Positions 8,640 to 26,314 of a stretch of DNA of 64,000 nt are shown here, one piece after another. The notes under the pieces are model-generated. The model was not told the DNA's origin and did not search any database. It saw only the letters and a list, made by a program, of their open reading frames with translations. Every line of letters starts with the position of its first letter. The first letter of the stretch is position 1. The DNA lies in assembly GCA_963719495.1 (NCBI GenBank), contig CAVRCI010000011.1, positions 1 through 64,000 on the forward strand, written 5' to 3'. Made by a program: the position numbers and the translations under genes. This DNA comes from an uncultured Verrucomicrobiae bacterium. GTDB taxonomy: Bacteria; Verrucomicrobiota; Verrucomicrobiia; Chthoniobacterales; JAATET01.

Positions 8640-9752
8640 ATGATTTCGATTTCCCAATCCCCCCTTTTTCGAGCCCACGTTCATCCCGACACGGGCATCA
8701 CGAGCCACCTGCTCGACCAACGCGTCGCCCCGCAGCAGCAGACGTTCTATTACGTCAACGACGGCTCGTCCCGAGACCGGCGGTTCTTTTGGTTCTACTG
8801 CGCCTTCCCGCCGTCCGGCGACGCGAACGCGGGGCGCACGCTCGGGGTGATCGATTTCGTCGACGGCGACATCCGCCATTTTCCCGAGACTCAATTTTCC
8901 CACGCCTCACCGTGGGTCGACCCCCACACCGGCGAGGTCTTCTGGGGAACGGGGCGCGCGATCTGGAAACGCGGACCGCGCTCCAGTGACCGGGCCGAGA
9001 AGATCGGCGAAGTCCCGAAGGATCTCATCGGTTGGCGCGACGTCACCTGCACGGTCACGCACCTCTCGCGATCGGCGGACGGGCGGGAATTTTTCATCGA
9101 CCTGCGCACCCCGGCGAAGACCTACCTCGGCACGATGACCATTGCGACCGGGGCGTTCGATTGCTGGGCGGAACTCGACGGCACCTGGGACCACGCGCAG
9201 TTTCATCCGACCGATCCCGACCTCGTGCTTTTCTCGCAGGAAATCCACGTCGACCCGATCACCGGGCGGCGGATTTCGTGCGACGACCGCATGTGGACCC
9301 TGCGGCGCGGTGAAAGCCCGCGCCCCGTCCTGCCGACGCCGACCGTCTGCACGCACGAATGGTGGAGCGCCGACGGACGCGCGATCTACGCCATCGACGG
9401 CGACGGCACGTTCCGGGTCGATCTGGCGACCCGGCGGCGCGAACCCGTCTGGCCCGGCGCCACCTGGCACACGCACGCCAACTCCGACGACACGCTGCTC
9501 GTCGGGGACCGCCACGGGAAATTTTTTCGCGGCTGCGAATCGCGGGTGACGTTCAAAAATCTCCCCACCGGTCGCCAGATCGAGATCGCTCACAATCCCG
9601 AGCTGATCGGTGACGTCGGCTCGAAATATCACATCGACCCGCATCCCCGCTTCGTCCTCGGGGAAGAATTCGCCGCTTACACGACCACCGTGCGCGGTCA
9701 GCTCGACGTCGCGTTCACCGCCACCGCCGACCTGCTCGCCGCGACGGCTTAA
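8640..9752 (+). CDS. Oligogalacturonate lyase-like (PL22/Ogl-like) beta-propeller protein
   Basis: Motifs HAQFHPTDPDLVLFSQE, DRMW, THEWWSADG, HPRF resemble Ogl. Confidence 0.65.
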   Translation: MISISQSPLFRAHVHPDTGITSHLLDQRVAPQQQTFYYVNDGSSRDRRFFWFYCAFPPSGDANAGRTLGVIDFVDGDIRHFPETQFSHASPWVDPHTGEVFWGTGRAIWKRGPRSSDRAEKIGEVPKDLIGWRDVTCTVTHLSRSADGREFFIDLRTPAKTYLGTMTIATGAFDCWAELDGTWDHAQFHPTDPDLVLFSQEIHVDPITGRRISCDDRMWTLRRGESPRPVLPTPTVCTHEWWSADGRAIYAIDGDGTFRVDLATRRREPVWPGATWHTHANSDDTLLVGDRHGKFFRGCESRVTFKNLPTGRQIEIAHNPELIGDVGSKYHIDPHPRFVLGEEFAAYTTTVRGQLDVAFTATADLLAATA

Positions 9753-9761
9753 CGTAAAACC
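9746..9761. promoter_or_regulatory. Putative LacI-type operator, site 1 (GGCTTAACGTAAAACC)
   Basis: CG-centred imperfect palindrome upstream of the GH2 gene. TATCCT starts 40 bp after the central C. Confidence 0.65.
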
Positions 9762-9816
9762 CGCCTCGAATTGGGATCACTCGGTGTCCCGCTATCCTTT
9801 CCCACCCGCCACTCCC

Positions 9817-11490
9817 ATGACCATCAACAAGCCCTTCCCTCAGCATCAGCGCCGCGTCGTCCATTCCCTCGATGGGAGTTGGGACTTTTCCTTTCTCGGC
9901 GACGTCGATGGCGATTCCGTCGACCTGGGTTCCGTCGACTTCGCGGATCGAATGCTCGTCCCGGCGGCTTTCGACTCCCTGCCCCGGCTGATGGGACGGC
10001 GTGGCGTCGCCGTTTACCGCCGCTCCATTCCGACCACGCCTGGTCGCCGCCGCCTGCTTCACTTCGAGGCGGTCAGTCTCTGGTGCCGCGTCTTCGTCGA
10101 CGGCGTCGCGCTCACCGATCACGACTGCGGTTACACCGGATTCTGGTGCGACGCGGGTGCCAGCGAGCGGGAATCGACGGAGATCATCGTGGTCGTCGAC
10201 AACCGCTTCGATTGGCAACGGACGCCGCTCCACGAGCAATTCTTCGACTTCTACCAGTGGGGCGGGATCACGCGCTCCGCGTGGCTGCACGAGGTGCCCG
10301 AGACATACGTCCGCTCGGCCCACGTCCGCGTGGACGATTTCGTCGCCGGGATGATCACCGTCACGGTCCGGCTCTCCGCCGCGGCAGCCGAAGTGACGAC
10401 CTCGATCGATGGTGCGGCGTCGGGAGTCCACGCGGTGTCGGGTTCGGAATTCTCAATCGAGCTCAGCGTCCCCGACCCCCGCCCGTGGTCGCCGGACGCG
10501 CCGCACCTTCACACGCTCGCCATCCGCGTTGGCGAAGACGACCTCATCGTCCGCTTCGGCCTGCGCACGATCCGCACGTCGGGCCGGGAAATTCTCCTCA
10601 ACGACCAGCCGATCAAACTCCTCGGCTACAACCGCCACGAATTTCACCCCGACACCGGCTCGTCGGTTTCGCCCGCGCAGCATCTCATCGACCTTCATTT
10701 GCTCGAGGATCTGGGCTGCAATTTCGTTCGCGGCAGTCACTACCCGCAGGACCAGCGGTTTCTCGATCTGTGCGACGAACTCGGAATCCTCGTCTGGGAG
10801 GAGGGGCTCGGCTGGGGTCAGCGCGAGCGCCAACTCACCGACCCGCACTTCCGCCAGTCCCACCTTCGCATGCTCGACGAAATGGTCGACGCCAGCGTCA
10901 ACCACCCGTGCGTGATCATCTGGGGTTTCCTCAACGAAGCCGGCACCAACGAGGAATCCACCCGCCCGATCTTCGAGGAATCCGTCGCGCGGCTCCGCGA
11001 ACGTGACCCCGACCGCCTCGTCGCCTGCGCCAGCATGTTCCCGCTCGACGACCTCTTTTACGACCAGGTCGACATCATCAACCACAACCTCTACCCGGGC
11101 TGGTATGACACCGGCGAGCACCCCGATCCGCTCAGCCTCATCCTCCCGCGCGTCCACGAATGCCTCGCCCACATCGCGCAATTCGACAAACCCTACGTCA
11201 TCAGCGAGACCGGGGCCGAGGCACTGCCGGGTTGGCACGATCCGATGAATGGATTTTTCACCGAGGAATATCAGGCCGAATACCTGCGCGTCTTCTGCGA
11301 GGAAGCCGTGAGCAATCCCGCCATCGCCGGCTTGGCGATCTGGCACTTCTCCGACGCCCGCGTCGACCGCAACGAGCAGCTCATTCGCCGTCCGCGCGGT
11401 TACAACAACAAAGGAACGTTCGACGAATACCGCCGCCCGAAAGCCGCCTGCGCCGTGGTGCGGGAAGTTTTTCGGAGAAGCGTGGGTTAA
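9817..11490 (+). CDS. GH2 beta-glucuronidase-like glycoside hydrolase
   Basis: ATG at 9817. Motifs GYNRHE, RGSHYPQ, WGFLNE (acid/base), ISETGAEA (nucleophile), and NNKG (NxKG uronidase motif). Confidence 0.88.
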   Translation: MTINKPFPQHQRRVVHSLDGSWDFSFLGDVDGDSVDLGSVDFADRMLVPAAFDSLPRLMGRRGVAVYRRSIPTTPGRRRLLHFEAVSLWCRVFVDGVALTDHDCGYTGFWCDAGASERESTEIIVVVDNRFDWQRTPLHEQFFDFYQWGGITRSAWLHEVPETYVRSAHVRVDDFVAGMITVTVRLSAAAAEVTTSIDGAASGVHAVSGSEFSIELSVPDPRPWSPDAPHLHTLAIRVGEDDLIVRFGLRTIRTSGREILLNDQPIKLLGYNRHEFHPDTGSSVSPAQHLIDLHLLEDLGCNFVRGSHYPQDQRFLDLCDELGILVWEEGLGWGQRERQLTDPHFRQSHLRMLDEMVDASVNHPCVIIWGFLNEAGTNEESTRPIFEESVARLRERDPDRLVACASMFPLDDLFYDQVDIINHNLYPGWYDTGEHPDPLSLILPRVHECLAHIAQFDKPYVISETGAEALPGWHDPMNGFFTEEYQAEYLRVFCEEAVSNPAIAGLAIWHFSDARVDRNEQLIRRPRGYNNKGTFDEYRRPKAACAVVREVFRRSVG

Positions 11491-11499
11491 CGTATAACG
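11484..11499. promoter_or_regulatory. Putative LacI-type operator, site 2 (GGGTTAACGTATAACG)
   Basis: Same motif upstream of a PEP-CTERM gene. TACCTT starts 41 bp after the central C. Confidence 0.6.
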
Positions 11500-11607
11500 A
11501 GAACCAATTCGCGGGGGCGGGTGGGCTGGGTTACCTTCCGCTAAGTAAGAAACAGGCAGGACCATCGTCCCAGCCTCCCAACCCCTCGAGATCAACCCCA
11601 CAGCACC

Positions 11608-12291
11608 ATGAAAAACACCCTCACCGTCCTCTCCATTCTCGCCCTGAGCGCGCTCGCGGCCAGTCCCGCCAAAGCCGTCGTATTAGCCAACTACGACTTC
11701 ACGACCAACACTGCGTCTGGAGACAGCGAACCTTTGACCACCGCCTCCACGTTTGACGATTTCGGCTGGACGTCGGAATTCCGCACCGCTGACGGCACTC
11801 AATATCGAGCTGTGCAAGTGAGTCAGACTCCCAGCAGCTTTGACGAAAATGAGTATTTCACCTTCACCCTAACGATTCCCGCGTTGACCACCGTCGACCT
11901 CACGTCGCTGACCTTCGACGGAATCTTCGAAAACGGAGCCGTTGGCCCGGTGAACTATTTCGTCCGTTCCGACGCGGGCGGTGATGCCTTCGCCACCAAT
12001 CTGACCATTGCGGAGGGCAACGAAGTGACAATGAACGACACTCTGACCCCGAAGTCCGTGAGCCTCGCTGCCGCCAGCTTTCAAGGCCTGTCGACTCCGG
12101 TCGAATTCCGAATCTACTTCACCGACGGCTCAAACAACACCAGCACATCCCGCTTCTCCGGCGTCGACAACGTCGTCCTGAACGGCGACATCACCGCCGT
12201 CCCCGAACCCAGCAGCGTCGCGCTCCTGATCGGCGGAGGCTGCCTGCTCGTCCTCCTGCGCCGTCGGCAAACGAATCGCTCAGCGGCCTGA
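11608..12291 (+). CDS. PEP-CTERM sorting-domain surface protein
   Basis: Signal peptide; C-terminal VPEPSS, TM helix and RRRQ basic cluster. Confidence 0.93.
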   Translation: MKNTLTVLSILALSALAASPAKAVVLANYDFTTNTASGDSEPLTTASTFDDFGWTSEFRTADGTQYRAVQVSQTPSSFDENEYFTFTLTIPALTTVDLTSLTFDGIFENGAVGPVNYFVRSDAGGDAFATNLTIAEGNEVTMNDTLTPKSVSLAAASFQGLSTPVEFRIYFTDGSNNTSTSRFSGVDNVVLNGDITAVPEPSSVALLIGGGCLLVLLRRRQTNRSAA

Positions 12292-12427: not shown

Positions 12428-12443
12428 CGGTTAACGTAAAACG
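12428..12443. promoter_or_regulatory. Putative LacI-type operator, site 3 (CGGTTAACGTAAAACG)
   Basis: Same motif upstream of the Verru_Chthon cassette. Confidence 0.65.
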
Positions 12444-12496: not shown

Positions 12497-13162
12497 ATGA
12501 AGCGTTTCTCCTCCTGCCTCCGCCCGCGCTCGGCCTCTCCGGCGTTCAGCCTCATCGAACTCCTCGTCGTGATGGCGGTGGTCGCGCTCCTGTTGGGAAT
12601 CGCGGGAATGGCGTTCAACAATTTCGGAAGATCAACTTCGCTCGCGGCGGCGGGAAACCGGGTCGCGGCCATTCTCGAACAGGCGCGGCAACACGCCCTC
12701 TCGCAGGGCGCGATGACGGTGGTGGCGATGTCGACGGATGCCACCAGCTCCAATCGAAACCAGGCCTTTGTCGTTCTGGCTGCCCGCCCGCGAAGCGACG
12801 GGGCGGCTCTGACCGCCGCCGATTGGAAGCAGGTTTCCAAATGGGAGATCCTTCCCGAGGGAATCACCGTCGATTCGGGTTCCAGCTTCACGGACTCCGG
12901 AACGAAGCTCGCTCCTTCGCTGCCCTCGCAATTGCCGGTGCGCGCCGGTGAACGGTCGAACTCCTTCCGCTACGTGATTTTCCAACCCAGCGGCGCCATC
13001 CTCGGCGGAGGGGCGGCGGCCCTTCGACTGGTGGAAGGGAGCTGGTCGAGCGGGGCCGCATCGCCCACCTACACGCGTCGAGGCTCCGACGGGACTCCCG
13101 GGAACTACTACAAACTCACCCTCATCGCCGCCACGGGGAGGTTGAAAGTTGATCGCCCGTGA
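12497..13162 (+). CDS. Prepilin-like protein, Verru_Chthon cassette protein D-like
   Basis: Prepilin motif AFSLIELLVVMAVVALL, FimT/GspH-like EQARQHALSQG, C-terminal TGR. ATG at 12497. Confidence 0.78.
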   Translation: MKRFSSCLRPRSASPAFSLIELLVVMAVVALLLGIAGMAFNNFGRSTSLAAAGNRVAAILEQARQHALSQGAMTVVAMSTDATSSNRNQAFVVLAARPRSDGAALTAADWKQVSKWEILPEGITVDSGSSFTDSGTKLAPSLPSQLPVRAGERSNSFRYVIFQPSGAILGGGAAALRLVEGSWSSGAASPTYTRRGSDGTPGNYYKLTLIAATGRLKVDRP

Positions 13163-13574
13163 TTCGATTCGACTCGCGAGCCGACGAGCCTTCAGCCTGA
13201 TCGAGGTCGTGCTCGCGCTCGGGATCACCACCGTGGCCATCATCGCGATCATCGGCCTGTTGTCGGTCTCGCTCCAGGGCAGCCGGGAGGCCTCCGAGGA
13301 CACGTCCTCCTCGGCGATCCTGAGCCAGGTCGTCGATGGATTGAGGGCGGAACCCTTCGACGACATGCGGACCTCGCTGGCGGGCGGCGGTCGCACTTTT
13401 ACCTTCAATCAAGAGGCCGCACCGGTCGCGCCGGGAGACTCGCCCGCCTACGTGTGTCTGGTCGAAGAGACTTCCACCAGCGGCACGCCGGTCAGCCTGC
13501 TGGCCATCAAGATCACGATCTCGACCGCTGCGGGCGAGAAGCGAACGAACCATGCAACGATCGCAAAATACTAA
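13149..13574 (+). CDS. Prepilin-like protein, Verru_Chthon cassette protein B-like
   Basis: Prepilin motif AFSLIEVVLALGI; short PilV-like protein overlapping both neighbours. Confidence 0.8.
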   Translation: MIARDSIRLASRRAFSLIEVVLALGITTVAIIAIIGLLSVSLQGSREASEDTSSSAILSQVVDGLRAEPFDDMRTSLAGGGRTFTFNQEAAPVAPGDSPAYVCLVEETSTSGTPVSLLAIKITISTAAGEKRTNHATIAKY

Positions 13575-14529
13575 CCGTCCCTGGCTTCGGCGCGGGTTCA
13601 CGGTGCTCGAGATCCTGGTTTCGATGGTGATTCTGTCGCTCCTCGTCGTGCTCCTGGCCTCGATGATGGGTCGGATCTCCGAGGCGTGGATGACCGGAGA
13701 AGGCCGCTCCCGAGCCAATCAAAGTGGGCGGGCTATCGCGGACGTGATGCGGACGGAACTCCAGGGGGCGCTGCTGCCCATCGAGGTGCCCATCGACGAC
13801 GACGACGATGACGATGCCGAAGAGATTGAAGAGATCGACAATCTCCAGTTCGTGGTGAACCCCTCGCTCCCAGCCGAGTATCAAAATCGTGATTCGATCT
13901 TTTGGCAGGCACCGGTCGCCACGGATAAAACCTTTGGTGACGTCGCCGAGCTCGGCTACTTCGTCGCGTGGGACGGTCTGCAACCTCAACTGCGAAGACT
14001 CTACGCCAGCCTCACGCAGACCTCGCCGTCGGGCGAAGTCACCGCGGACCCGAATTTCCGAATCTACAAAAATCCGACGGACTGGATCACCCGGGACATT
14101 CTCGAGGCGTCCAGTCCCGCGGATGAGCCGAACGATTACCGCGGACTCTTCGCGGAGAACGTCCTGGGGTTTTGGATTCGCTGCCTGGATCCGGAGGGGA
14201 ATCCGATCACGCAGGACGCGGACGGCACGGCCTTCGCGAATGGGTTCGATTCGCGACGGGGCTACCGCTACCGGGACGGGTCCGGCCAAATGATCACCAA
14301 AGTCGGATCCGCTCTTCCGGCCGTGATCGAAATCAGCCTCGCGCTGATCGATCCGCGATCCGCGCAACGCATCGATCCGGCGCTCAAAGCAAAAATCATT
14401 TCGGTCACCGCTCAGGCGGAGACGGCTTCGGAGTTCGTCGAAGACGCAATCGCCGACGCCGGTTTGGAAGCCATCCGCCCGGGCCTCCGGGCCTACACCA
14501 CCACAGTTTTCCTGAGGAATTCGCGATGA
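13552..14529 (+). CDS. Prepilin-like protein, Verru_Chthon cassette protein C-like
   Basis: Motifs GFTVLEILVSMVIL, IFWQAP, ELGYFV, LPAVIEISL; PilW/GspJ-like size. Confidence 0.8.
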   Translation: MQRSQNTNRPWLRRGFTVLEILVSMVILSLLVVLLASMMGRISEAWMTGEGRSRANQSGRAIADVMRTELQGALLPIEVPIDDDDDDDAEEIEEIDNLQFVVNPSLPAEYQNRDSIFWQAPVATDKTFGDVAELGYFVAWDGLQPQLRRLYASLTQTSPSGEVTADPNFRIYKNPTDWITRDILEASSPADEPNDYRGLFAENVLGFWIRCLDPEGNPITQDADGTAFANGFDSRRGYRYRDGSGQMITKVGSALPAVIEISLALIDPRSAQRIDPALKAKIISVTAQAETASEFVEDAIADAGLEAIRPGLRAYTTTVFLRNSR

Positions 14530-17369
14530 AAATCAAGAGCCACCCACTTCGCCGGACCCACGACGGATCGGCGCTGCTCATCACGCTGGCGGCGCTGGTG
14601 ATCCTGACCATCATCCTGGTCGGATTCTCCGAGAGCGTCCGTGTCGAGCGCGTTTCGGCCCGGAGTCATTTGGATGGCACGCAGGCCACGCTTCTGGCCC
14701 AGGCGGGGATCGACCAGGCCGTCTCGGCCATCCGCGAAACCACGGCGGATCCCGAGCGCAACTGGATCAGCCAGCCCGGTCGGCTGATCGCGGGCGCGGC
14801 GACCGGAGGCGGATCACCGGATGCGCGGAAGATTCTTCAGCAGGAGGTGCCGCTGTCCTCCGGGCTGGCGACGGCGACAACGGATCCAAATTTTCGACCG
14901 CCCGATCTCAACGCACTCACTTTCGAGACTCCCGCCTCCCACCTCATCACCGAGAGTCCGGATGCTACGGGCAACGTCGCGGCGCTCAGGGCCCAGTGGG
15001 TCTACGTTCGAAAAGACGGCACCCTCGACGACTCGGCGGCACCCAGCACGTCCAACACCGTCAACCCACTCGTCGGGCGCTACGCCTACTGGACCGATGA
15101 CGAGAGCGGCAAAGTCAACTACAACATCGCGTGGACGCGCGATGACGCCAACCCGAATTCCATCAGCCACCCGACCAAGGTCGGCCTGGCGGCGCTGCTC
15201 GCGCCGGACAACCTCGCGGTCGGCGAAGACATGGCGCGGGCCATTCACTTCTACGACGTGCCGGGGGCGCCGACGGCACCGAGCCTCGACCAGTATGGCC
15301 TCCTGAACCGAGTCGCCTTCGACACCCCGCTGAACGTCCGTCGCGTGGCGTTCGACAACGCCGTGCCGACCGGTTTTTTGGAGGCGCTGACCGCCCAGAA
15401 ATTCAATCTCACCCACTACGCCAACGATCCCGGGACGACCTTCTTCAACGACGACCGCTTCGTTCTGACGACCCGGGAAGACCTCGCTGGCAAGCGCGCC
15501 TTTCTGGACATTTTGAATGACTCCGAAGCGGACCCTGGGTTCCTGGACTCGCTCGATTTTGACAAATACAACGCGACGATCGAGACGCTGATCGAGTATC
15601 TCAAAGAAACGAACTGGCCGGTCGCCCCCGGAAAAAGCCTCAAAGAGAAATATTTCCCCGGAGACACCCAGGGCGACCTTCGCCTGGCCCAATTCGCGAT
15701 CAACATTATCGACTACGTCCGAAGTGCGGAATCGGAAAAGCCCTTCGTCGAACCCACTCGAGCCATCATCGAGAACGACACCGTCCAGATCAAGAAATCC
15801 AGTGGAACTGCGGAGACGTTCATCGGCCAGACCCGCAGATTGTTGATCACGGAGCAGGCGATGTGGCTTTCCGAGACGCCGGAAGCCTCCGGACCGAACA
15901 AGGACAGATACAAAGCCCGCTTCTACGTCGAAGTCTACCTCCCGGAAAACTACGGATTCGAGTCGATCAATCTTCTGGAGCCGGAGCCCGATAAACTTCT
16001 CTTCTGCTATTACGACGAAACGGCCCGGTCGGTCGACGCCAACGTGAAATACGCCGATTTCAAGGGCGAACGAACTTCCTCGAGAGAAAAGAGGTTCTTT
16101 CGGGTGCGCACCAGCAATATCGTCACGGGAGATCCCATTCTGCTCGCCGGCAACTACGCCGTGCTCAGTCACGTCTTTTACCGCGACACGCCCAGATCGG
16201 TAACGCCAAACGTCGGTTTGAAGACCATCCTCTTCATCGGGACCGATGGCGACAACGACGATCTGATCGACGGAAATTCCCCGCCCCGGATCGCGTTTGC
16301 ACCGAACATGGGGTCCACCAGAGGAGACCCCACGACCTATCTCGACTACCCCATCACCGCCAACATCCCGGACCCCGGAGACACCGGCATTCCCGCCATC
16401 CGTTCGTTTGAAACGAATGATCCCCGGCTCGAATACCTCATCGCGGACTGGGGAACGATCCGATCGACGAACACGCTCGGCAGCGTCAATGCTCGCTTCG
16501 CGGAAACGGTCGGCCAACTCTCCAGCACCACCTCTCCCCAGCAGGACACCGACGCCAATGGCAAAATCTCCGCGGCCAGTCTCCAGATGCCGGCTCCGAA
16601 GGGCAGCGCTGCGAACCCTACCGGTCAGGTCCAATCGCCCGGTGAACTCGGCTTGATCCACACCGGCGCCGACTACCGAACGAACGTCGCAAGCGTCCCG
16701 TGGCGAACGATTCGCCTACAGCCAAGCACGGCACCCGCCGGCTCCGAGGTCCCGGATTGGGCGTTCATGGATCTGTTCGCCGCGCCCGTGAAGACCCCGA
16801 CCGACGCGGAGGAACTTTACTCCCCCCACGGAAACTCGAGTGCTGGACGGATGAACGTCAACGCTCAGATCACGCCCTTTCCGATCACCCGGTCAGCTCC
16901 CCTGGCAGCCGTCTTCCGCGACGCGCGCACCGATTCCACCGACTCCACCAAAGTCGTGGACGCAGCCAAGGCCGAGCAACTCGCTCTGAACGTCGTGGAG
17001 CACCGACTATCGACCGGCGGAAGCGGGATTCCGGCGGGCAAGGAATACGGTTACGCCGGGGTCTTCGACTCGCCCGGCGAGATCGTGGAAATCGCCGGGA
17101 TCGCGGATGGCGGCGAGAAGAGCGAGCAACTCATCCGCGACGTCGCCAGCCTGCTCACGACGCGGGGCAACGTTTTTGGTGTCTATTCGATCGGCGAGAC
17201 CCTCAAGCAAACACCAGCCGGCGACCTGACCGTGACGGCCACCAAGCGGCTGCACGCCATCGTCGAGCGCTACGTCGACCCGAGCATCCCCGTGCCTGAC
17301 GACCCGAGCGTCACCGCTCCAGACAACGTCAGATTCCGCGACATCTATTACCAGGATCTCACGCCGTAG
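14526..17369 (+). CDS. Verru_Chthon cassette protein A-like large PilX-type protein
   Basis: ATG at 14526. Motifs GSALLITLAALVIL (PilX-type, no E5), GRYAYWTDDESGKVN, GRMNVN, LTTRGNVFGVY. Confidence 0.82.
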   Translation: MKIKSHPLRRTHDGSALLITLAALVILTIILVGFSESVRVERVSARSHLDGTQATLLAQAGIDQAVSAIRETTADPERNWISQPGRLIAGAATGGGSPDARKILQQEVPLSSGLATATTDPNFRPPDLNALTFETPASHLITESPDATGNVAALRAQWVYVRKDGTLDDSAAPSTSNTVNPLVGRYAYWTDDESGKVNYNIAWTRDDANPNSISHPTKVGLAALLAPDNLAVGEDMARAIHFYDVPGAPTAPSLDQYGLLNRVAFDTPLNVRRVAFDNAVPTGFLEALTAQKFNLTHYANDPGTTFFNDDRFVLTTREDLAGKRAFLDILNDSEADPGFLDSLDFDKYNATIETLIEYLKETNWPVAPGKSLKEKYFPGDTQGDLRLAQFAINIIDYVRSAESEKPFVEPTRAIIENDTVQIKKSSGTAETFIGQTRRLLITEQAMWLSETPEASGPNKDRYKARFYVEVYLPENYGFESINLLEPEPDKLLFCYYDETARSVDANVKYADFKGERTSSREKRFFRVRTSNIVTGDPILLAGNYAVLSHVFYRDTPRSVTPNVGLKTILFIGTDGDNDDLIDGNSPPRIAFAPNMGSTRGDPTTYLDYPITANIPDPGDTGIPAIRSFETNDPRLEYLIADWGTIRSTNTLGSVNARFAETVGQLSSTTSPQQDTDANGKISAASLQMPAPKGSAANPTGQVQSPGELGLIHTGADYRTNVASVPWRTIRLQPSTAPAGSEVPDWAFMDLFAAPVKTPTDAEELYSPHGNSSAGRMNVNAQITPFPITRSAPLAAVFRDARTDSTDSTKVVDAAKAEQLALNVVEHRLSTGGSGIPAGKEYGYAGVFDSPGEIVEIAGIADGGEKSEQLIRDVASLLTTRGNVFGVYSIGETLKQTPAGDLTVTATKRLHAIVERYVDPSIPVPDDPSVTAPDNVRFRDIYYQDLTP

Positions 17370-17394: not shown

Positions 17395-17410
17395 GGTTTA
17401 ACGTCAAACC
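17395..17410. promoter_or_regulatory. Putative LacI-type operator, site 4 (GGTTTAACGTCAAACC)
   Basis: Seven of eight positions pair; lies upstream of the GPH symporter and uxaE. Confidence 0.7.
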
Positions 17411-18933: not shown

Positions 18934-20178
18934 ATGAAAATCATTCAGAAATTTACGTTCGGCAGCGGCGATCGCTTCGGACACCAGGGCGAAGCGCAAC
19001 TCGCCGCCGTCCTCGAAGCCCGCGCCCGGGGCATCAACGTCTGCCCGACTTGGAATAAATCCAATCGCGAGCACACGATCATCGGCTCGAAGCCCAACGA
19101 CCTCCGGGCCGAAGCCGACGCCGCGGTCGCGGCGCTGGGTTACGACGGCGACTACTACGTCGACGCCGACCACATCGGCTTGGCAACCGTGGGGGGATTC
19201 TTGGCGGGAAGCGATTTTTTCACACTGGACGTCGCCGACTTCATCGGGAAACCAGCCGACGGAGCGGACATCGACGCATTTGTCGCCGCGCATCAGCACT
19301 TGATCGGCGACCTCGCGGTTCCGGGCATCGACGAGCCTTTGGCCATCAGCGACACCTCGATTCGCCAGGCCGCGGCGAAATTTTTGCTCGCTGCCCAGCA
19401 GGCTGGAGCGATTCACCGTCACATCGCCGAGACGAAGGCCGGGGATTTCGTCACGGAAGTCTCGGTCGACGAGACCGACACGCCGCAGAGCCCCGTCGAG
19501 TTGCTCCTCATCCTCGCGATGCTCGCCGAGCAGCGGGTGCCCGTGCAGACGATCGCGCCGAAGTTCACCGGCCGCTTCAACAAGGGCGTCGACTACGTCG
19601 GCGACCTCGCGCAGTTCGAGAAGGAATTCGATCAGGACCTCAGCGTGCTCGCCTACGCGGTCGCGGAGTTCGGCCTGCCGCCGACGCTTAAATTGAGCGT
19701 CCATTCCGGCAGCGATAAATTCTCGCTCTACCCGATCATCAACCGGCTCGTCCGCCAGCACGACGCCGGCCTCCACGTGAAAACGGCCGGCACGACGTGG
19801 CTCGAGGAAGTGATCGGCCTCGCCGAATCGGGCGGAGACGGCCTCGAGGTCGCGAAAAAAATCTACGCCGGCGCCCACGCGAAGTTCGACGAACTCACCG
19901 CGCCCTACGCGACGGTCATCGACATCGACCGGGCCCGGCTGCCCGCTCCGGAAGAGGTCGCGGCCTGGACCAGCGAGCAATTCGTGTCGGCCCTCCGCCA
20001 CGATCCGACCTGCGCCGCCTACAATCCCCACCTCCGCCAGCTCATCCACGTCGGATTCAAAGTCGCCGCCCAGCTCGGCACCGAGTTCACGGACGCCCTC
20101 GACGCGAACGCCGAAATCGTCCATCGCAACGTGAAGCAGAATTTCCTCGAGCGCCACATCGTGCCGATCTTCGGCTGA
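18934..20178 (+). CDS. uxaE: Tagaturonate/fructuronate epimerase family protein
   Basis: Motifs GDRF, DADHIG, EVSVDETD, KLSVHSGSDKFS, HVKTAGTTWLEE. Confidence 0.88.
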   Translation: MKIIQKFTFGSGDRFGHQGEAQLAAVLEARARGINVCPTWNKSNREHTIIGSKPNDLRAEADAAVAALGYDGDYYVDADHIGLATVGGFLAGSDFFTLDVADFIGKPADGADIDAFVAAHQHLIGDLAVPGIDEPLAISDTSIRQAAAKFLLAAQQAGAIHRHIAETKAGDFVTEVSVDETDTPQSPVELLLILAMLAEQRVPVQTIAPKFTGRFNKGVDYVGDLAQFEKEFDQDLSVLAYAVAEFGLPPTLKLSVHSGSDKFSLYPIINRLVRQHDAGLHVKTAGTTWLEEVIGLAESGGDGLEVAKKIYAGAHAKFDELTAPYATVIDIDRARLPAPEEVAAWTSEQFVSALRHDPTCAAYNPHLRQLIHVGFKVAAQLGTEFTDALDANAEIVHRNVKQNFLERHIVPIFG

Positions 20179-20246: not shown

Positions 20247-20262
20247 GACTCAACGTCAAGTC
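20247..20262. promoter_or_regulatory. Putative LacI-type operator, site 5 (GACTCAACGTCAAGTC)
   Basis: Variant motif upstream of the H-X9-DG prepilin gene. CAGGTT starts 41 bp after the central C. Confidence 0.6.
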
Positions 20263-20314: not shown

Positions 20315-21034
20315 ATGAAAGTCCCCCATCCCGTCCGATCGCTGCAATCCGCGTTCACCCTCATTGAAATTCTCGCCGTCGTCGCGATCGTCGGCACGCT
20401 CGCCGCGCTGAGTTTTTCCATGCTGTCCGGGACCCGAGCTAAAGCCAATGACGTGGCCTGTTTATCGAACCTCAAACAGCTCGGGGTCGGCGTGCAACTC
20501 TACTTGGCGGACAACGAAAGATATCCCGCCGGAACGTTCAACGGCGGCCCCTACGTGCATTGGACGGATGCCGTGCAGCCCTACCTCGGGAAGGACAATG
20601 TCCGGCGCGCCAATGGTCTGACGAAAATCTTCGATTGTCCGGCGAAGACGGTTTCGACCGGCCAACCCGAAATGGCCTACTCGGCGAATCCCAACGTGAT
20701 GCGGGACCTGGCTCGGAGCAGCGCCGCGCAGCAAGTCCACATGATGCAAGTCCAACGCCCCTCATCGACCATCATCCTGGCGGACGCGTGCCAGCTCAAC
20801 GAGAAGGGCTACGTCAAACCCTTCATGTTCAGCCAGCCGGGTATCTACGACCGTTCCGAAGGCAACGCCGATCAGGCGGTGCCGGTCGGTGCCGACAAGG
20901 ACGGGATCAATTTTGCCGGCATTCGCTACCGCCACGCGAACGACACCGCGGCCAACTTCCTCTTCGCCGATGGTCACGCCCAAAGCATCAAAAAAGGCGA
21001 TCTCCTCTACAAACATCTCCAGATCGCTTACTAA
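20315..21034 (+). CDS. Prepilin-type N-terminal cleavage protein with H-X9-DG domain (DUF1559-like)
   Basis: Motifs AFTLIEILAVVAIV, CLSNLKQLG, and C-terminal RHANDTAANFLFADGH. Confidence 0.9.
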   Translation: MKVPHPVRSLQSAFTLIEILAVVAIVGTLAALSFSMLSGTRAKANDVACLSNLKQLGVGVQLYLADNERYPAGTFNGGPYVHWTDAVQPYLGKDNVRRANGLTKIFDCPAKTVSTGQPEMAYSANPNVMRDLARSSAAQQVHMMQVQRPSSTIILADACQLNEKGYVKPFMFSQPGIYDRSEGNADQAVPVGADKDGINFAGIRYRHANDTAANFLFADGHAQSIKKGDLLYKHLQIAY

Positions 21035-21065
21035 GCGGCTCTTCTTCATTCTCCGATCCCTGACC

Positions 21066-21581
21066 ATGAAAAAAACGACCATCCTCGCGCTCACCGCCCT
21101 CGCCGCATTTTCAATCTCCGCACCCACCGCGTTCTGCCAGTCATCGGAAGGTGCGATTTTCGTCGAGGCCGAGTCGACCGCCGATCAGACGGGAGCCAAA
21201 GTCCTCGAGGATGGCGGGGCCTTCGGCACCTCCTACACGATGCACCCGAAGGAATTCAATCCGGTGTTCAAAATGGCAACGCCGACCGGTGCGCCGGAAT
21301 ATACCGTGTGGATGCGCGCTCGCGGCGTCGCCCTGCAGCTCAAGGCCGCACCGGAGATCAACGGCAAGCAGAAGGAAGTGAAGTGGGTGTGGAAACCGGG
21401 CGACGACTGGACTTGGAAATCCTTCGGGCGCTATCCTGTCGAGCAGCTCGGTGCCGAAGTCGTGATCATTCGCGGCAAGGACCCCATCGAGATCGCGGGG
21501 CTGGACGCCATCATTTTCGCGCCCGACGCGGAGTTCGATCCGACCCTCGCGGGTGCGGCGGAGGAACTCGCCGAGCAGTGA
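21066..21581 (+). CDS. Secreted hypothetical protein (possible carbohydrate-binding beta-sandwich)
   Basis: Signal peptide from ATG 21066; motifs FVEAES, YTVWMRAR, WTW, LDAIIF. Confidence 0.6.
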   Translation: MKKTTILALTALAAFSISAPTAFCQSSEGAIFVEAESTADQTGAKVLEDGGAFGTSYTMHPKEFNPVFKMATPTGAPEYTVWMRARGVALQLKAAPEINGKQKEVKWVWKPGDDWTWKSFGRYPVEQLGAEVVIIRGKDPIEIAGLDAIIFAPDAEFDPTLAGAAEELAEQ

Positions 21582-21669
21582 CCTGTTCCCGATCCCATCT
21601 CGGGGTGGACCCCGCTCCGCCGCTGGTCCGATGGGATTCGGAGCCCGAGGCCACGTCAACCGCGGCCGA

Positions 21670-23082
21670 ATGAATCGTCTGAATCTCATCGAGTTCATCT
21701 GGCACGATCTCGGGGACTGGCTCGGGTGCTACGGACGCGCGGGCGTTCGCACGCCGCACCTCGACCGGCTGGCCGCAGAGGGCGCGATTTTCGAGCGACA
21801 TTTTTGCACCGCGCCCCAGTGTTCGCCGAGCCGGGCGAGCTTGATGACGGGGCAATACTCCGCTCAACACGGCATCCTTGGATTGACCCACCGCGGTTGG
21901 AAATACGCGGAGGGCGTCGACGATTTGCCGACCATTCTGCGCGGTCACGGCGTGCGCTCGATCCTCTGCGGTCTTCAGCACGAACGCCACGACGCGCGCG
22001 ACGCCTGGCCGCGGAAGGACGTCGAACGCACCGGCGAAATCACGTTTTCCTACGACGAACGCTGGACGCTCGAGACCAAATCCCACCTCGTCGCCGACGC
22101 GGCGGTCGAGCGGTTGGACGCCGACGCCGAACGCCTGCGGGCCTCGCCGTTCTTCCTCTCGGTGGGGTTCTCCGACGTGCACCGGCTCTACGCGAACGAC
22201 TACGACCCCGCGGTCGTCGATCAGCTGGAGGTCCCCGCCTACCTCCCGGACGATCTCGCCACCCGGAAGGATCTCGCGACGTTCTGTCACCGCATCGAGC
22301 GGGCGGACGCCGCGGTCGGACGCATCCTCGAAGCGCTGGAGCGCGCGGGACTCGCGGACAACAGTCTCATTTTTTTCACCACCGACCACGGCCCCGAGAT
22401 GCCCCGCGCCAAGGCGACGCTCTACGATCCCGGCCTCAAGTGCGCGCTGCTCATGCGTCTGCCGGGCACCATCCCCGCGGGCTCCCGCGTCGATTCGCTC
22501 ACGAGCCACCTCGACCTCGCCCCCACGATCCTGACCGCGCTCGACCTGCCCGTTCCGTCCGCGTGCCAGGGCGACTCGCTCTGGCAGCGAATCACGACCG
22601 GCGAGGGTGGCACGCGCGACGTCGTCTTCGCCCAGATGACCTACCACAGCGGCGAATACGATCCAATGCGCTGCATCCGCACGAATCGCTGGAAGTTGAT
22701 CCGCAACTTCCTGCCCGGCTGGCCCGTCCAGATCTCCGGCCCCTACGCGGCGCGCTTCGGCGCGGACTACGTCACCCGCCACTTCGCCCAACTCCGGCCG
22801 GAGATCGAACTCTTCGACCTGGAAGCCGATCCCGACGAACTCACCAACCTCGCGGGTCAGCCCGAGGTAGCCAGTGTCGAGGCGGACCTCACTCGGCGGC
22901 TGCGTGAATTCCTCGTCGCCACCGAAGACCCGATTCTCGACGGCCAGATCCCCCACGCCGCGCCGGAGCTCGCGGGCTGCGCCTGCCGTTGGGCGAAATT
23001 CCAACCCCGGCACCCGGAGCGCGAGAACTTCCAATTCGAACTCGTCGTCACGTCCGACTTCGGCGAGCAGCCGCTGCCATGA
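21670..23082 (+). CDS. Sulfatase (Cys-type, S1 family)
   Basis: Signature CSPSRASLMTG; also HDLG, TTDHG, ELFDLEADPDE. Confidence 0.93.
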   Translation: MNRLNLIEFIWHDLGDWLGCYGRAGVRTPHLDRLAAEGAIFERHFCTAPQCSPSRASLMTGQYSAQHGILGLTHRGWKYAEGVDDLPTILRGHGVRSILCGLQHERHDARDAWPRKDVERTGEITFSYDERWTLETKSHLVADAAVERLDADAERLRASPFFLSVGFSDVHRLYANDYDPAVVDQLEVPAYLPDDLATRKDLATFCHRIERADAAVGRILEALERAGLADNSLIFFTTDHGPEMPRAKATLYDPGLKCALLMRLPGTIPAGSRVDSLTSHLDLAPTILTALDLPVPSACQGDSLWQRITTGEGGTRDVVFAQMTYHSGEYDPMRCIRTNRWKLIRNFLPGWPVQISGPYAARFGADYVTRHFAQLRPEIELFDLEADPDELTNLAGQPEVASVEADLTRRLREFLVATEDPILDGQIPHAAPELAGCACRWAKFQPRHPERENFQFELVVTSDFGEQPLP

Positions 23083-25181
23083 GCGTCTCGCTCTCGGGCG
23101 GCTTTTCGCTCCTCTCCGAGTTTCGGCACCGCCCGATCCAGCTCGCCGTCGAGCGGTTGCGGCTCGACTGGCGGGCCGTCTTCTCGGCGCCGCTCGGGCG
23201 CGGCGAGGCGGTCGCCGCCGATCAGATCCGTCTCCGACCGTTCACGTCCGACCTCGCGGAGGAAAGCTTCCGCGTCGCGCGCGACCCAGCGACAAATTCT
23301 CTGGAAGTCTCGTCCGGCGGCATTCTCGGCTGCGTCTACGCCCTGCACGCAATCAGCGTGCGCCTCCTCGGCACCGACGCGTTCGACTTTTGGACCCAAT
23401 CCGTTCCCCAACTCCGCGCCCGGATCACGGTGACCCACGACCTCGAGCCAGCCGCCGCCACGACGCGTTGGCGCGGTTGGTTCATCAACGACGAGGATTG
23501 CCTGCTCGGATTGGACGACAGTCTGGTCATTCAGGAGGACGTCTGGCGCGGTCTCTTCGAATCGATCCTGCGCGCGGGATACAATCTCGTCATTCCCGGC
23601 ACGGGCATTTCGCCCGACGCCTTCCAGCTCGATCTCGCCACCGAATACGGACTCTGGATCGGGCAGCACCACGCCGAGCCGCTGGGCGCTGAGCTCTTCG
23701 GCAATGCCTTCCCCGGCCAGCCGATGCACTACCCCGAGTGCAAACCGCGGCTCTTCGGTCTCTACGAGGACGCGGTCCGGCACGCCGCCGGTCGCCGGGT
23801 CGTCTGGACCCTTGGGCTGCGCGGTCAGGGCGACAAGACCTTCGCCCACGAGGACGCGCGCTACGCGACCCCCGCCGCGCTCGGGGCGCTCATTTCCGAC
23901 GTCGCCCGCGAGCAACGCGCGCTCGTCGAGTCCCGTTGCGCCGGCCCCCAGCATTTCGCCTACTACCTCTACTCCGAGAGCATGGATCTCTACCGGGGCG
24001 GGCACCTTCAGCTCGATCCCGACGTCATTCTCATCTGGGCGGACAACGGCTTCGGCGGCCTGAGGCGGCGGCGCAACCTCGGCGAGGCGAACCCCGAGCT
24101 GCTCGCGCTCCCGACCCCGGCGGAAGCCGCCACGACCACCCACGGTCTCTACTACCACCTGAGTTTTTACGACGTTCAGGTCGCGGGAAAACTGACCCCG
24201 TGGGTGGCCCCCGCGATCATCGCGGATCAAATCCTCGAACTTCGCAGCCGCGCCCCCGTCGCCTTCGCGCTCGTCAACGTCAGCAACGTGAAACCCTTTC
24301 TCGCCCAGATCGAACTCTTCCGCCGCGTGCTCGCCGCAGACGCTGCGAGCGAAGATCCGACCGCCATCTGCCGAGCCGCGTCGGAAGACTGGTGGAAATC
24401 GCGCTGCCCCGACCACTCGGCGTCCCTCGTGGCGCTGGAGCAGGATTACTTCGAGGCCCACCCCGCCTTCGGACCATTTCCCGATTCCCGCATGGGCGAA
24501 ATGGCCGGCCACATTCTGTTACGCGCGCTGATCCGAGCGGCCCTCACCAACCGCGGTCTCCCCGTCCACCTGTCCTTCCTCGACGAGGCCCCCGGCGATC
24601 TTTCCATTCTTCTCGACGAACTTGCGAAGCGCGTCGAGCCGACCGTCCCCGCGTGGATCGCCATCCGCATGAAGGCACTCGAGATCGGCACCCAGCTCAC
24701 CGGCGAGGCCGCGACGTTTTTCCAACGCGACCTCCAAATGCACTGCCTCTTCAAGAGCGCGACGTTCGAGGGCTTCGCCGAAGCTCTTCGCGGTCTCCGT
24801 TCCTTTCTCGACGGAGATTTCGAGTCCGCGTTCGTCGTCCTGAACTCCGCGCTCGACCACGCCATCGCCGCTCGAGACGCGCTGACCGTCGGCGACGTCG
24901 GGAGGTGGGAAAACTTCCACCGCGGCGACTGGCTCACCAACGTCGACGAGACGATCCGGCATCTCTCGCTGGCGCGCGATACCGCCCGACTGCACGGCGA
25001 TCCCGCGTTTTCCTGGGATTCGTGGTCGAGCCGCGCCGCCCTCCCCGAGCCGAAGCACCTCGTCACCGTAACGGCGCGAACGTTTGACTCCCCGCAACTG
25101 GCCGACATGATGGTAGGAACCGCGGCGCGGAGTTCCCCAAATCCCCGCTTCCCTTTGGCCTCCGCCGAGACGACCGGGTAA
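23079..25181 (+). CDS. Glycoside hydrolase family 115-like (alpha-glucuronidase)
   Basis: Motifs RGWFINDE, HHAEPLG, WTLGLRGQGD, IWADNGFG, GLYYH. ATG overlaps the sulfatase stop. Confidence 0.78.
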   Translation: MSVSLSGGFSLLSEFRHRPIQLAVERLRLDWRAVFSAPLGRGEAVAADQIRLRPFTSDLAEESFRVARDPATNSLEVSSGGILGCVYALHAISVRLLGTDAFDFWTQSVPQLRARITVTHDLEPAAATTRWRGWFINDEDCLLGLDDSLVIQEDVWRGLFESILRAGYNLVIPGTGISPDAFQLDLATEYGLWIGQHHAEPLGAELFGNAFPGQPMHYPECKPRLFGLYEDAVRHAAGRRVVWTLGLRGQGDKTFAHEDARYATPAALGALISDVAREQRALVESRCAGPQHFAYYLYSESMDLYRGGHLQLDPDVILIWADNGFGGLRRRRNLGEANPELLALPTPAEAATTTHGLYYHLSFYDVQVAGKLTPWVAPAIIADQILELRSRAPVAFALVNVSNVKPFLAQIELFRRVLAADAASEDPTAICRAASEDWWKSRCPDHSASLVALEQDYFEAHPAFGPFPDSRMGEMAGHILLRALIRAALTNRGLPVHLSFLDEAPGDLSILLDELAKRVEPTVPAWIAIRMKALEIGTQLTGEAATFFQRDLQMHCLFKSATFEGFAEALRGLRSFLDGDFESAFVVLNSALDHAIAARDALTVGDVGRWENFHRGDWLTNVDETIRHLSLARDTARLHGDPAFSWDSWSSRAALPEPKHLVTVTARTFDSPQLADMMVGTAARSSPNPRFPLASAETTG

Positions 25182-25210
25182 CCGTCCCCCGGCCGAGCCC
25201 CCCCGCCCCC

Positions 25211-26314
25211 ATGAATTCTGGCCGCATCACCCTCCGCGACATCGCCGAACGTGCCGGACTGTCCCGAGCCGCGGTCTCCCTGGCGCTTCGGAACGACGCC
25301 TCGCTCCCGAAACGCACGATCGAGCGCGTGCGCCGGATCGCCGACGAACTCGGTTTCTCGCCCGACCCGAACGTCTCGAAACTGATGGCCCACCTCCGGC
25401 TCGACCGGTCCGCCGCCTACCAAGCGACCATCGCCTGGCTGACCGCCTGGCCCACGGAGGAAGGCTGGCACGTCTGGCTGCGGGAGAAGCGGCTCTTCGC
25501 CGGTGCCACCGCCCGGGCCGAGACGCTCGGCTACAAACTCGAGCCGTTCTGGCTCCGCGCCCCGAGAATGACGGCCCGCCGCGCGACCGCCATTCTCCAA
25601 TCCCGCGGCATCGAGACGGTTCTCGTCGCTCCCCTCCCCGACGGGACGACGACCCTCGATTTCGAGTGGGATCAGTTCTCGGTCGCGGCCGTCGGACATT
25701 CGCTGGTCGACCCCGACCTCCACCGCATCGAAAGCGCCCACGCCTACAACTTCACCGAAGCCCTGCGCCAGATCCGGTTCGGCGGGGTGCGCCGGATCGG
25801 GTTCATCGAAAGCCACGGCACCGATCTGCGCATGTCGCACGAGTGGACCGGCGCATTCCTCGTCGATCAATTGAGCGTGCCGGAAGCCGACCGCGTCCCG
25901 CTGCTCATGCAGGAGGAGATCGGGCGCGCCGATTTCCAGGAATGGTTCACGCGCCACGCTCCCGAAGTGATCATCGCAAACGAGTGCCCCGTCCTCCAGT
26001 GGCTGGGCGAGATGGGCCTCCAAGCCCCCCGCGACGTCGGGCACGTCCGGCTCGACTGCGGCGGACCCGAGTTGCTGGATCGCTACGAATGGGGGTTCTC
26101 CGGCACCTGGCCCTCCGGCATGGATCAACTCCCCGAAGAAATCGGTGCCACCGCCGTCGACACCGTCATCGCCCAACTCCACCTCCGCCAACGCGGCGTC
26201 CCCGCCAACCCCAAAACCACCCTCGTCAAAGGCCGCTGGCGGCAGCTACAGACCTTCACCGCATCGAAGGCGGGTGGAAAACGGAAGAAGCGGCGTCAAC
26301 TCAACGTCAAGTGA
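25211..26314 (+). CDS. LacI-family transcriptional regulator (paralog 2)
   Basis: HTH ITLRDIAERAGLSRAAVSLALRN; collinear and highly similar to 7483-8580. Confidence 0.92.
   Translation: MNSGRITLRDIAERAGLSRAAVSLALRNDASLPKRTIERVRRIADELGFSPDPNVSKLMAHLRLDRSAAYQATIAWLTAWPTEEGWHVWLREKRLFAGATARAETLGYKLEPFWLRAPRMTARRATAILQSRGIETVLVAPLPDGTTTLDFEWDQFSVAAVGHSLVDPDLHRIESAHAYNFTEALRQIRFGGVRRIGFIESHGTDLRMSHEWTGAFLVDQLSVPEADRVPLLMQEEIGRADFQEWFTRHAPEVIIANECPVLQWLGEMGLQAPRDVGHVRLDCGGPELLDRYEWGFSGTWPSGMDQLPEEIGATAVDTVIAQLHLRQRGVPANPKTTLVKGRWRQLQTFTASKAGGKRKKRRQLNVK
26298..26313. promoter_or_regulatory. Putative LacI-type operator, site 6 (AACTCAACGTCAAGTG)
   Basis: Variant motif within the lacI 3' end, upstream of a PEP-CTERM gene. 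TAAGTT starts 41 bp after the central C and ends 7 nt before the ATG. Confidence 0.6.

Follow-up and report, generated by a model that had tools for sequence, protein, structure and literature searches.

The closest described systems to the locus reported here are the local sugar regulons of LacI/GalR-family regulators compiled in RegPrecise (PMC4052901). In the excerpts of that study available to us, even palindromes with a central CG are given for 1173 of 1303 transcription factors, more than 75% of the sites lie 140-30 bp before a start codon, 72% of the LacI-family transcription factors (LacI-TFs) are autoregulated, and dual or activating members, including FruR/Cra and PckR, are described; the word Verrucomicrobia is absent from the paper. 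We analyzed a 64,000-nt stretch of DNA from an uncultured Verrucomicrobiae bacterium (contig CAVRCI010000011.1, positions 1 to 64,000; hereafter the window), in which a 16-mer recurs six times in front of glycan-degradation genes, a sugar symporter gene and genes for pilin-like and PEP-CTERM surface proteins. As in the RegPrecise regulons, insofar as the excerpts describe them, the element is an even, CG-centred palindrome of 16 bp, placed 50-120 nt before start codons, and a regulator with a full predicted LacI fold is encoded within or beside the sugar-catabolic cluster. The present locus differs from them in that pseudopilin and PEP-CTERM genes are included and in that the sites face the gene and keep a fixed distance of about 9 nt to a predicted -35 box downstream of them.

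Paralogous LacI-family pairs with diverged operators are known from the GalR/GalS type. Here too, two paralogues, neighbouring and 61% identical in amino acid sequence, occur together with two related operators that have the core AACGT in common; what differs is that the two operator classes diverge at positions +/-6 and +/-7, tracking a single F/Y-versus-L change in the recognition helix. In Akkermansia, mucin uptake requires genes of the mucin utilization locus (MUL), which encode pili and periplasmic complexes, according to a review (PMC12418764). The likeness to the present locus, verrucomicrobial glycan uptake with pili genes, is one of description only, and control by LacI operators is not described in the available parts of that review, whereas here the genes encode pseudopilins like those of the type II secretion system (T2SS) and PEP-CTERM proteins. 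The polysaccharide utilization loci of Bacteroidota (SusC/SusD) show the same clustering, and likely co-regulation, of carbohydrate-active enzymes, candidate surface glycan-binding proteins and a sensor-regulator. In contrast to them, neither a Plug domain nor a TonB-dependent receptor barrel (PF07715, PF00593) was found in this 98.6% complete genome, while control genomes matched, and no SusC-type protein was recognized; the regulator is of the LacI type and not a hybrid two-component system, SusR or an ECF factor. The T2SS pseudopilus, composed of GspG as the major and GspH-I-J-K as the minor subunits, shares N-terminal methylation motifs with proteins of the locus, which gave weak matches to GspH, PilV/GspI-like and GspK (cassette proteins) and to GspG (DUF1559 protein). 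Unlike T2SS genes, the genes here stand apart from any secretion ATPase or secretin gene in the window and behind predicted sugar-regulon operators, and cassette protein A is as long as 947 aa.

The initial annotation of the window had proposed a single CG-centred palindromic motif in six copies at gene boundaries, through which two local LacI proteins would co-regulate surface genes and glycan-degrading genes. We verified the six 16-mers letter for letter, all on the + strand (Table 1), and all six lie at gene boundaries. Intergenic DNA makes up only 4.4% of positions 7483-31824. The central CG was present in 6/6, while the palindromes proved imperfect, with 6, 4, 6, 7, 6 and 5 of 8 complementary pairs in site order. 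The proposal of one six-copy motif did not hold, as two classes can be told apart: class A (GnTTAACGTnAAAC / GnTTAACGTnnAAC), comprising sites 1 to 4, and class B (ACTCAACGTCAAGT), comprising sites 5 and 6. In palindrome layout, class A reads GTTTAAC followed by GTnAAAC and class B reads ACTYAAC followed by GTCAAGT; the core TYAACGT is common to both, and the difference is symmetric, located at the outer positions +/-6 and +/-7 (GT..AC in class A, AC..GT in class B). Even length, palindromic form and central CG are those of LacI-type operators, and we consider it likely that the six sites represent two classes of 16-bp palindromes bound by the two neighbouring LacI regulators. The stop codon of the upstream gene is overlapped by sites 1 and 2, and site 6 lies within the last 17 nt of LacI-2. 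Between 9752 and 26359, each gap of at least 44 nt preceding a + strand gene contains one site, and the six sites head six transcription units.

Both of the local LacI proteins named initially were found (Table 1). The HTH_LacI domain (PF00356) scored 38.6 bits in LacI-1 and 37.1 bits in LacI-2 (cut-off 27), while PF13377 was marginal (26.2 and 20.9 bits, cut-off 26.5). The AlphaFold2 (AF2) model of LacI-1 had a mean predicted local distance difference test score (pLDDT) of 90.3, with a helix at residues 53-66 following the helix-turn-helix (HTH), and Foldseek aligned it over its full length to RbsR, CelR, LacI, PurR and CcpA (E 5e-18 to 1e-15); as modelled, LacI-1 has the hinge helix and the two-lobe, periplasmic-binding-protein-like effector domain of the family. 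The recognition helix reads SRAAVSFALRN in LacI-1 and SRAAVSLALRN in LacI-2, and this one residue separates the clades, with SRAAVS(F/Y)ALRN in 5/5 proteins of the LacI-1 clade and VSLAL(R/K)N in 5/5 of the LacI-2 clade. As a lead, we take the clade-specific position to be equivalent to LacI R22, which contacts outer operator bases. On balance, we favor a pairing in which class A is read by LacI-1 and class B by LacI-2, a prediction drawn from co-occurrence and gene position. LacI-2 closes the operon that site 5 heads and would therefore be autoregulated; no site precedes LacI-1 itself.

We then evaluated how specific the sites are in the 4.54-Mb genome. The loose core TNAACGTNNA gave 8 matches in the window against 3.8 +/- 2.0 expected, a number reached by 6 of 100 shuffles and thus not significant; the full motifs of the two classes are significant. 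Of the class A 12-mer TTAACGTNNAAC, the genome contains 8 exact copies, four in the window and four at a paralogous locus on contig C6, and of the class B 14-mer ACTCAACGTCAAGT it contains 3, two in the window and one at the end of contig C10. Weight matrices were trained on sites from other genomes only, to avoid circularity, and used to scan the genome with thresholds of at least 19 bits (class A) and at least 21 bits (class B) and ten third-order Markov genomes as the control. The class A matrix yielded 9 matches compared with a mean of 0.4 in the Markov genomes, namely four in the window, four on C6 and C13:670140, which is probably false, and the class B matrix yielded 4 (two in the window, C10:115331 and C6:77747) compared with a mean of 0.1. 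A motif equally common in coding DNA throughout the genome, which the initial annotation had named as the finding that would overturn its proposal, was not seen: apart from the one probable false match, matrix matches are confined to this locus family.

The region at 53.7-77.6 kb of C6 (overall 53700-77750) is a rearranged paralogue of window positions 5204-31814, with segment identities of 96.6%, 85%, 78% and 68%; window 5204-12292 and C6 66716-59637 are 96.6% identical, the symporter and UxaE genes 85% and the prepilin gene 68%. The C6 sites at 59513 and 74715, which precede the symporter/UxaE and prepilin genes, were counted as independent because the DNA surrounding them is not aligned by blastn. 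The C6 copy of LacI-1 is 99.4% identical to that of the window, but two single-base insertions put it out of frame past codon 42 and once more near nt 693; the copy represents a pseudogene or else an error in the assembly. With this frame disrupted, the class A sites on C6 would depend on LacI-1 of the window. A third copy at the end of contig C10 (115331-115591, 98.8% identical to window 20248-20507) holds the class B site together with the first part of the DUF1559 gene. Its homology starts at the operator and the contig stops inside the DUF1559 gene, which suggests a collapsed or unresolved assembly repeat. Window 5204-12292 has the same segment boundaries as its counterparts on C6 (96.6%) and in the congeneric genome G001 (94.2%), whereas the flanks diverge; possibly the LacI-1/GH2/PEP-CTERM block moves or recombines in one piece.

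A search of 41 genomes with LacI-1 found close orthologues within the genus only. The distribution of the two classes follows that of the two regulators: G001 encodes only LacI-1 (99.7-100% identical) and has only class A; G003 and G004 encode both LacI-1 (77-78%) and LacI-2 (87-88% to LacI-2) and have both classes, as in this genome; G005 encodes a single LacI that is 46-50% identical to LacI-1 and LacI-2; and in G002, which has no LacI match at E<=1e-40, the motif is absent. Thus class B is confined to genomes with LacI-2 and class A occurs where LacI-1 is present, with neither in G002. Gene order in the congeneric loci departs from that of the window, yet the sites directly precede orthologous genes. 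With a relaxed pattern, 4/7 matches in G001, 6/9 in G003, 7/11 distinct positions in G004 and 2/3 in G005 stand just before such genes; the other matches in these four genomes lie in coding DNA or have no explanation. Class A precedes the Verru_Chthon cassette in 5/5 genomes and also GH2a, the symporter, a DUF1559 paralogue and PEPa, and in G004 a GH39-like enzyme with a carbohydrate-binding module (CBM), a label based on its sequence resemblance to the scanned G003 enzyme. The site before the symporter gene was found also on C6, in G001 and in G004, and the G001 equivalent of site 2 reads GGTTTAACGTAAAACG at the same place. Class B precedes the DUF1559-sulfatase-GH115-LacI-2 operon, where the G003 and G004 orthologues of site 5 read GACTTAACGTCAAGTT, and PEPb-type genes. 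Exact class B patterns number 3 in G003 and 2 in G004, all in the locus, with none in G001, G002 or G005. For the exact class A 12-mer, the locus accounts for all matches in G003 and G005, 4/6 in G004 and 3/4 in G001; in G003 and G005 its number is not above the reversed control because their sites deviate slightly.

Beyond the genus, L030 was the sole close locus among 80 metagenome loci, a contig from a more distant organism with 52% GC and a LacI of 52% identity. It has 8 distinct matches in 21 kb, 6 of them before genes: the sites precede the sulfatase-GH115-symporter genes, which are divergent from the LacI gene with the site in the gap between them, two PEP-CTERM paralogues, a GFO gene, a CBM6/35 protein gene and a vWA-like gene (labelled by eye from its DASKT motif). 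The other 79 loci, whose LacI relatives are 30-41% identical, gave 49 pattern rows in about 716 kb. A scan of genome contigs returned four loci, three of which lie on two large contigs of Verrucomicrobiae metagenome-assembled genomes already covered by the congeneric loci, and no site was found in the fourth, the 5.4-kb contig L112. The sites therefore recur in G001, G003, G004, G005 and L030, the conservation in orthologous loci that the initial annotation had asked for, and they show the placement of LacI-type operators, within 140-30 bp before start codons of regulator-linked genes. L030 also contains, at 17374-18936, a LacI paralogue cut down to its effector domain (236 aa, no HTH) beside an ImmA/IrrE-like peptidase gene, which may be a regulator gene broken by insertion.

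For the promoter architecture, 29 sites from seven promoter families were compared (omitting G004 8705, four L030 sites, C10, C6 77747 and the C6 copy of site 1), and the boxes given below come from this anchored comparison; they are predicted, not mapped. Among the sequencing runs listed for window 9600-19500, three DNA runs of a single study cover part of it, and no RNA run was found. A TTG starts 9-11 nt after the 16-mer at 24/29 sites and TTG or TTC at 29/29, compared with 3.7% and 9.2% of random genome positions, and in the window the -35-like TTG box lies about 9 nt downstream of each 16-mer. The full pattern TTG/C-N15-18-T[AG]NNNT was found at 11/29 sites compared with 0.8% at random, and the TAnnnT box is kept in 4/4 GH2a promoters and 4/4 genus-level PEPb promoters despite differing spacers. 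Most 16-mers are 45-59 nt from the ATG. These distances predict short leaders, a leaderless PEPb mRNA and an operator centre near -53. An alternative assignment with the -35 box inside the operator (TTAACG) and TGnnAT as the -10 box was rejected, as that -10 box has no A at position 2.

Several points weigh against reading the sites as LacI operators of two matched specificities. The comparison set is small and related, consisting of four congeneric genomes and one contig, and two of the C6 sites are not independent because they lie within the 96.6% identical duplicate. The pairing of classes with regulators rests on co-occurrence and on the position of LacI-2 behind a class B site only; in addition, the L030 and G005 proteins have the helix residue L together with A-like or hybrid half-sites, a mismatch that warns against a simple code. 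No site was found in the 59-nt gap upstream of LacI-1. A classical repressor would not sit where these sites are, centred at about -53 and upstream of the predicted -35 box, and because they do not lie over this box, repression is not assured. Every site is oriented toward its gene; at position 11, 27/29 sites have A or C and 2 have T, and the promoter-proximal half-site is consistently off-consensus, an asymmetry that a symmetric dimer does not explain; our guess is that it comes from common descent of a promoter module or from interplay with the region of the C-terminal domain of the polymerase alpha subunit (alpha-CTD). A clear -10 box is seen in just 11/29 sites, and a standard sigma-70 consensus scan of 8500-28400 gave 2 promoter-like sites, a number not above shuffles, with none at the operators. 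Restriction avoidance of AACGTT was considered as the cause of the missing T at position 11 and was not convincing, as this hexamer is depleted to a moderate degree only (501 against 781, a ratio of 0.64), like many palindromes. Of all palindromic hexamers in the whole genome, TACGTA is avoided most strongly (46 observed, 125 expected), which may point to a restriction system.

CcpA and Cra activate from sites upstream of the -35 box, and the same two paralogues could likewise act through the same sites with the opposite sign, as activators from about -53; we regard this as the strongest competitor, although a doubtful one. The operator stands at a fixed distance before the TTG/TTC box in 29/29 sites, all sites face the gene, and none overlaps the predicted -35 or -10 box. 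On the other hand, GalR represses from an upstream operator at -60.5, and the promoter assignment on which the argument depends is itself a prediction. Dual or activating LacI-TFs are known, for example FruR/Cra and PckR, but according to the excerpts these named activators are global regulators, while the present regulon is local (PMC4052901).

It is unlikely that a single factor, either one LacI or an unlinked protein outside the family, reads all sites and that the difference between the classes is drift. The core TYAACGT in both classes would fit such a factor, as would the class B sites of G003 and G004, which carry the class A core TTAACGT, the A/B hybrid sites of L030 with its one intact LacI, and recognition helices that differ at one residue only. 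Yet class B is found only together with LacI-2, while G001 combines LacI-1 with class A alone, and the symmetric change at +/-6 and +/-7 would be expected if the specificity of a dimer had changed; the loci have no further regulator gene in common that is conserved. It is very improbable that the 16-mer is not a regulator site and instead forms part of the promoter, as an UP-like element or one used by an alternative sigma factor. Its fixed spacing to the -35-like box, its orientation toward the gene and an A-tract in the promoter-proximal half agree with such an element, whereas its dyad symmetry and invariant central CG, its restriction to one locus family and its co-occurrence with LacI genes do not; a general element would be expected genome-wide, and the matrices find none elsewhere.

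We give almost no credence to chance, to a mobile repeat or to an element of the RNA leader: the 16-mer is oriented toward the gene and the leader of site 6 folds better than shuffles (z -2.5), but 4/5 leaders do not (z 0.20, 0.66, 0.27, -1.0 and -2.5 for the five) and have no common fold, the 16-mer is not consistently paired, positions 3 and 14 are often mismatched, and Rfam matched nothing in the region (only tmRNA and tRNA elsewhere in the window); AACGTCAAG is common to the motif and the attC-like repeat of an integron on contig C2, but the flanks of the sites are unrelated apart from the promoter boxes, which excludes a mobile repeat, and the attC-like repeats reach at most 20 bits on the class B matrix while class B sites score at least 21.8; chance is excluded because matrix matches far exceed the Markov-genome means.

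The C2 sequence GGCCTAACGTCAAGCT was tried as a third operator class and rejected, since it belongs to about 175 copies of a 60-nt repeat near an integron integrase gene and is attC-like. This array lies outside the window at C2:27415-177349, with copies of about 60 nt at intervals of 400-1800 bp, almost all of them on the + strand, each starting with an RYYYAAC-like core (e.g. AGCCGAACGTCAAGCT, then cagccaccctgagcggg...). It ends 2 kb before the integrase gene at C2:176417-177349 (TIGR02249 425.6 bits, cut-off 265), and a few further attC-like copies are found on C7 at 38-41 kb and at C4:229425. It resembles a chromosomal integron of a Verrucomicrobium with a very large array of cassettes.

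Reading the sites as operators of two LacI paralogues, we next considered which genes they would control. The conserved targets are the Verru_Chthon cassette, DUF1559 pseudopilins, PEP-CTERM proteins, GH2, GH115, the sulfatase and the GPH symporter. All four cassette proteins have members of the Verru_Chthon series as their best NCBIfam matches, in the order D-B-C-A, and only B exceeds its curated cut-off (score/cut-off: D, TIGR02596, 54.1/70; B, TIGR02598, 56.5/51.4; C, TIGR02599, 61.6/256.5; A, TIGR02600, 286/332.3); judged by these matches, the genes form a divergent Verru_Chthon cassette. The proteins are minor-pseudopilin-like, with weaker GspH, PilV and GspK matches, and about 8 genes resembling cassette A are present in the genome. 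PEPa and PEPb are PEP-CTERM proteins, with TIGR02595 above its cut-off and VPEP...RRR tails in their sequences. Atlas neighbours of PEPb carry PATR or PEP-CTERM (score 0.94), and as a lead this suggests that PEPb possibly has a PATR-like repeat body. The protein first annotated as an H-X9-DG prepilin is prepilin-like, with an N_methyl domain and PF07596 (28.3 bits, cut-off 23.3), but its C-terminal motif, counted by eye, is H-X11-DG, and no H-X9-DG model is among its listed NCBIfam matches. The small secreted protein encoded next to it has an AF2 model with a pLDDT of 70.8, whose top Foldseek matches are CBM35/CBM6 domains (E 1e-4 to 1e-2), some of these structural neighbours having been solved with uronic acids. 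The same CBM-like domain forms the N-terminus of the GH39-like enzyme in relatives. These features fit a role of the surface genes in glycan capture or uptake, without proving one. To our knowledge, the Verru_Chthon, DUF1559 prepilin-like and PEP-CTERM families are widespread, and expanded in bacteria of the Planctomycetes-Verrucomicrobia-Chlamydiae (PVC) group, and have no assigned role.

In the proposed mechanism, a sugar effector, probably containing uronate (uronate oligosaccharides being a guess) and released by the enzymes of the locus itself, would alter regulator binding, so that one signal would turn on three gene groups jointly. The first would comprise the beta-glucuronidase-like GH2, GH115, the sulfatase, the GPH symporter and UxaE; the second the minor-pseudopilin cassette, the GspG-like DUF1559 pseudopilin and its CBM35-like secreted partner; and the third the two PEP-CTERM surface proteins. 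The region just upstream of the -35 box is where the alpha-CTD of RNA polymerase binds, and local LacI-family regulators are mostly repressors; repression by blocking this region is somewhat preferred to activation. The co-regulation by two LacI proteins suggested in the initial annotation is thus supported in silico by specificity, conservation and co-occurrence, and takes the refined form of two linked sub-regulons. The operator type is ordinary for LacI-TFs, while the content of the regulon and its conservation are not, and no description of this regulon was found in the literature searched on Verru_Chthon, DUF1559, verrucomicrobial prepilins and PEP-CTERM proteins with LacI, as judged by title or abstract.

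A conserved operator tying surface genes to glucuronide and galactoside catabolism may turn glycan capture or uptake into a testable hypothesis for these families, for which the pair of regulators, the pair of 16-bp operators and a few candidate inducers provide handles. With no detectable TonB-dependent receptor, the passage of oligosaccharides across the outer membrane is the question that this regulon addresses. Tentatively, and with much less confidence than the operators themselves, we suggest that in a bacterium lacking TonB-dependent receptors each glycan-utilization locus has a separate set of proteins for capture and import, which the glycan of that locus induces by way of a dedicated LacI paralogue; such a set would consist of a pseudopilus tip (the Verru_Chthon cassette), the DUF1559 pseudopilin with its CBM35-like partner and the PEP-CTERM proteins. 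If true, the locus would represent a kind of polysaccharide utilization locus that is independent of SusCD and in which operator specificity diverged by one helix residue after regulator duplication. The two operator classes together with the single-residue helix difference would make a compact natural case of such divergence.

Table 1 Coordinates of the predicted sites, promoters and genes of the locus (window numbering)
Feature	Position	Strand	Details
LacI-1	7483..8580	-	LacI-family regulator, 365 aa
Protein of 370 aa	8640..9752	+	divergent from LacI-1; stop codon inside site 1; no Pfam or NCBIfam match
Site 1	9746..9761	+	class A, GGCTTAACGTAAAACC; kept in G001, G003, G004
Site 1 predicted promoter	-35 TTGGGA 9771-9776; -10 TATCCT 9793-9798	+	
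GH2 enzyme (GH2a), beta-glucuronidase-like	9817..11490	+	Pfam GH2 domains; NF007538 261 bits, below cut-off 544
Site 2	11484..11499	+	class A, weakest, GGGTTAACGTATAACG; class A weight matrix 19.5 bits; 109 nt before ATG
PEP-CTERM surface protein PEPa	11608..12291	+	TIGR02595 25.2 bits, cut-off 16
Site 3	12428..12443	+	class A, CGGTTAACGTAAAACG
Site 3 predicted promoter	-35 TTGCAA 12453-12458; -10 TGAATT 12475-12480	+	
Verru_Chthon cassette D-B-C-A	12497..17369	+	D 12497..13162, B 13149..13574, C 13552..14529, A 14526..17369
Site 4	17395..17410	+	class A, GGTTTAACGTCAAACC; 7/8 pairs
GPH-family sugar:cation symporter	17470..18900	+	PF13347 E 2.6e-80; TIGR00792
UxaE tagaturonate epimerase	18934..20178	+	PF16257 E 1.8e-54
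Site 5	20247..20262	+	class B, GACTCAACGTCAAGTC
DUF1559 / GspG-like prepilin	20315..21034	+	PF07596 28.3 bits; N_methyl; TIGR01710 weak
Small secreted protein, CBM6/CBM35-like beta-sandwich (lead)	21066..21581	+	
Sulfatase	21631..23082	+	PF00884 E 4e-41
GH115	23079..25181	+	PF15979 E 2.5e-44
LacI-2	25211..26314	+	last gene of operon behind site 5; PF00356 37.1 bits
Site 6	26298..26313	+	class B, AACTCAACGTCAAGTG; kept in G003 (two copies), G004; hybrid form in L030
Site 6 predicted promoter	-35 TTGAGA 26324-26329; -10 TAAGTT 26346-26351	+	-10 box 7 nt before ATG
PEP-CTERM surface protein PEPb	26359..27222	+	TIGR02595 23.6 bits, cut-off 16
Terminator-like hairpin	27262..27295	+	15-bp stem, strong; after PEPb
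GFO/IDH/MocA oxidoreductase	27321..28721	+	
LacZ-type GH2	28819..31824	+	

The GFO oxidoreductase and LacZ-type GH2 genes at the end of the cluster lack a dedicated site in the window; in L030 the GFO gene is preceded by one. A motif-like sequence, G(T/A)GAACGTCAACGC, lies at 16849-16864 inside the cassette A coding region, about 520 nt before the stop codon, and is kept at the same place in G001, G003, G004 and G005; it is probably held by the protein code, an internal site being the alternative. Elsewhere in the window, Rfam identified a tRNA gene at 46678-46749 (68 bits) and a tmRNA gene at 57995-58353 (173 bits).

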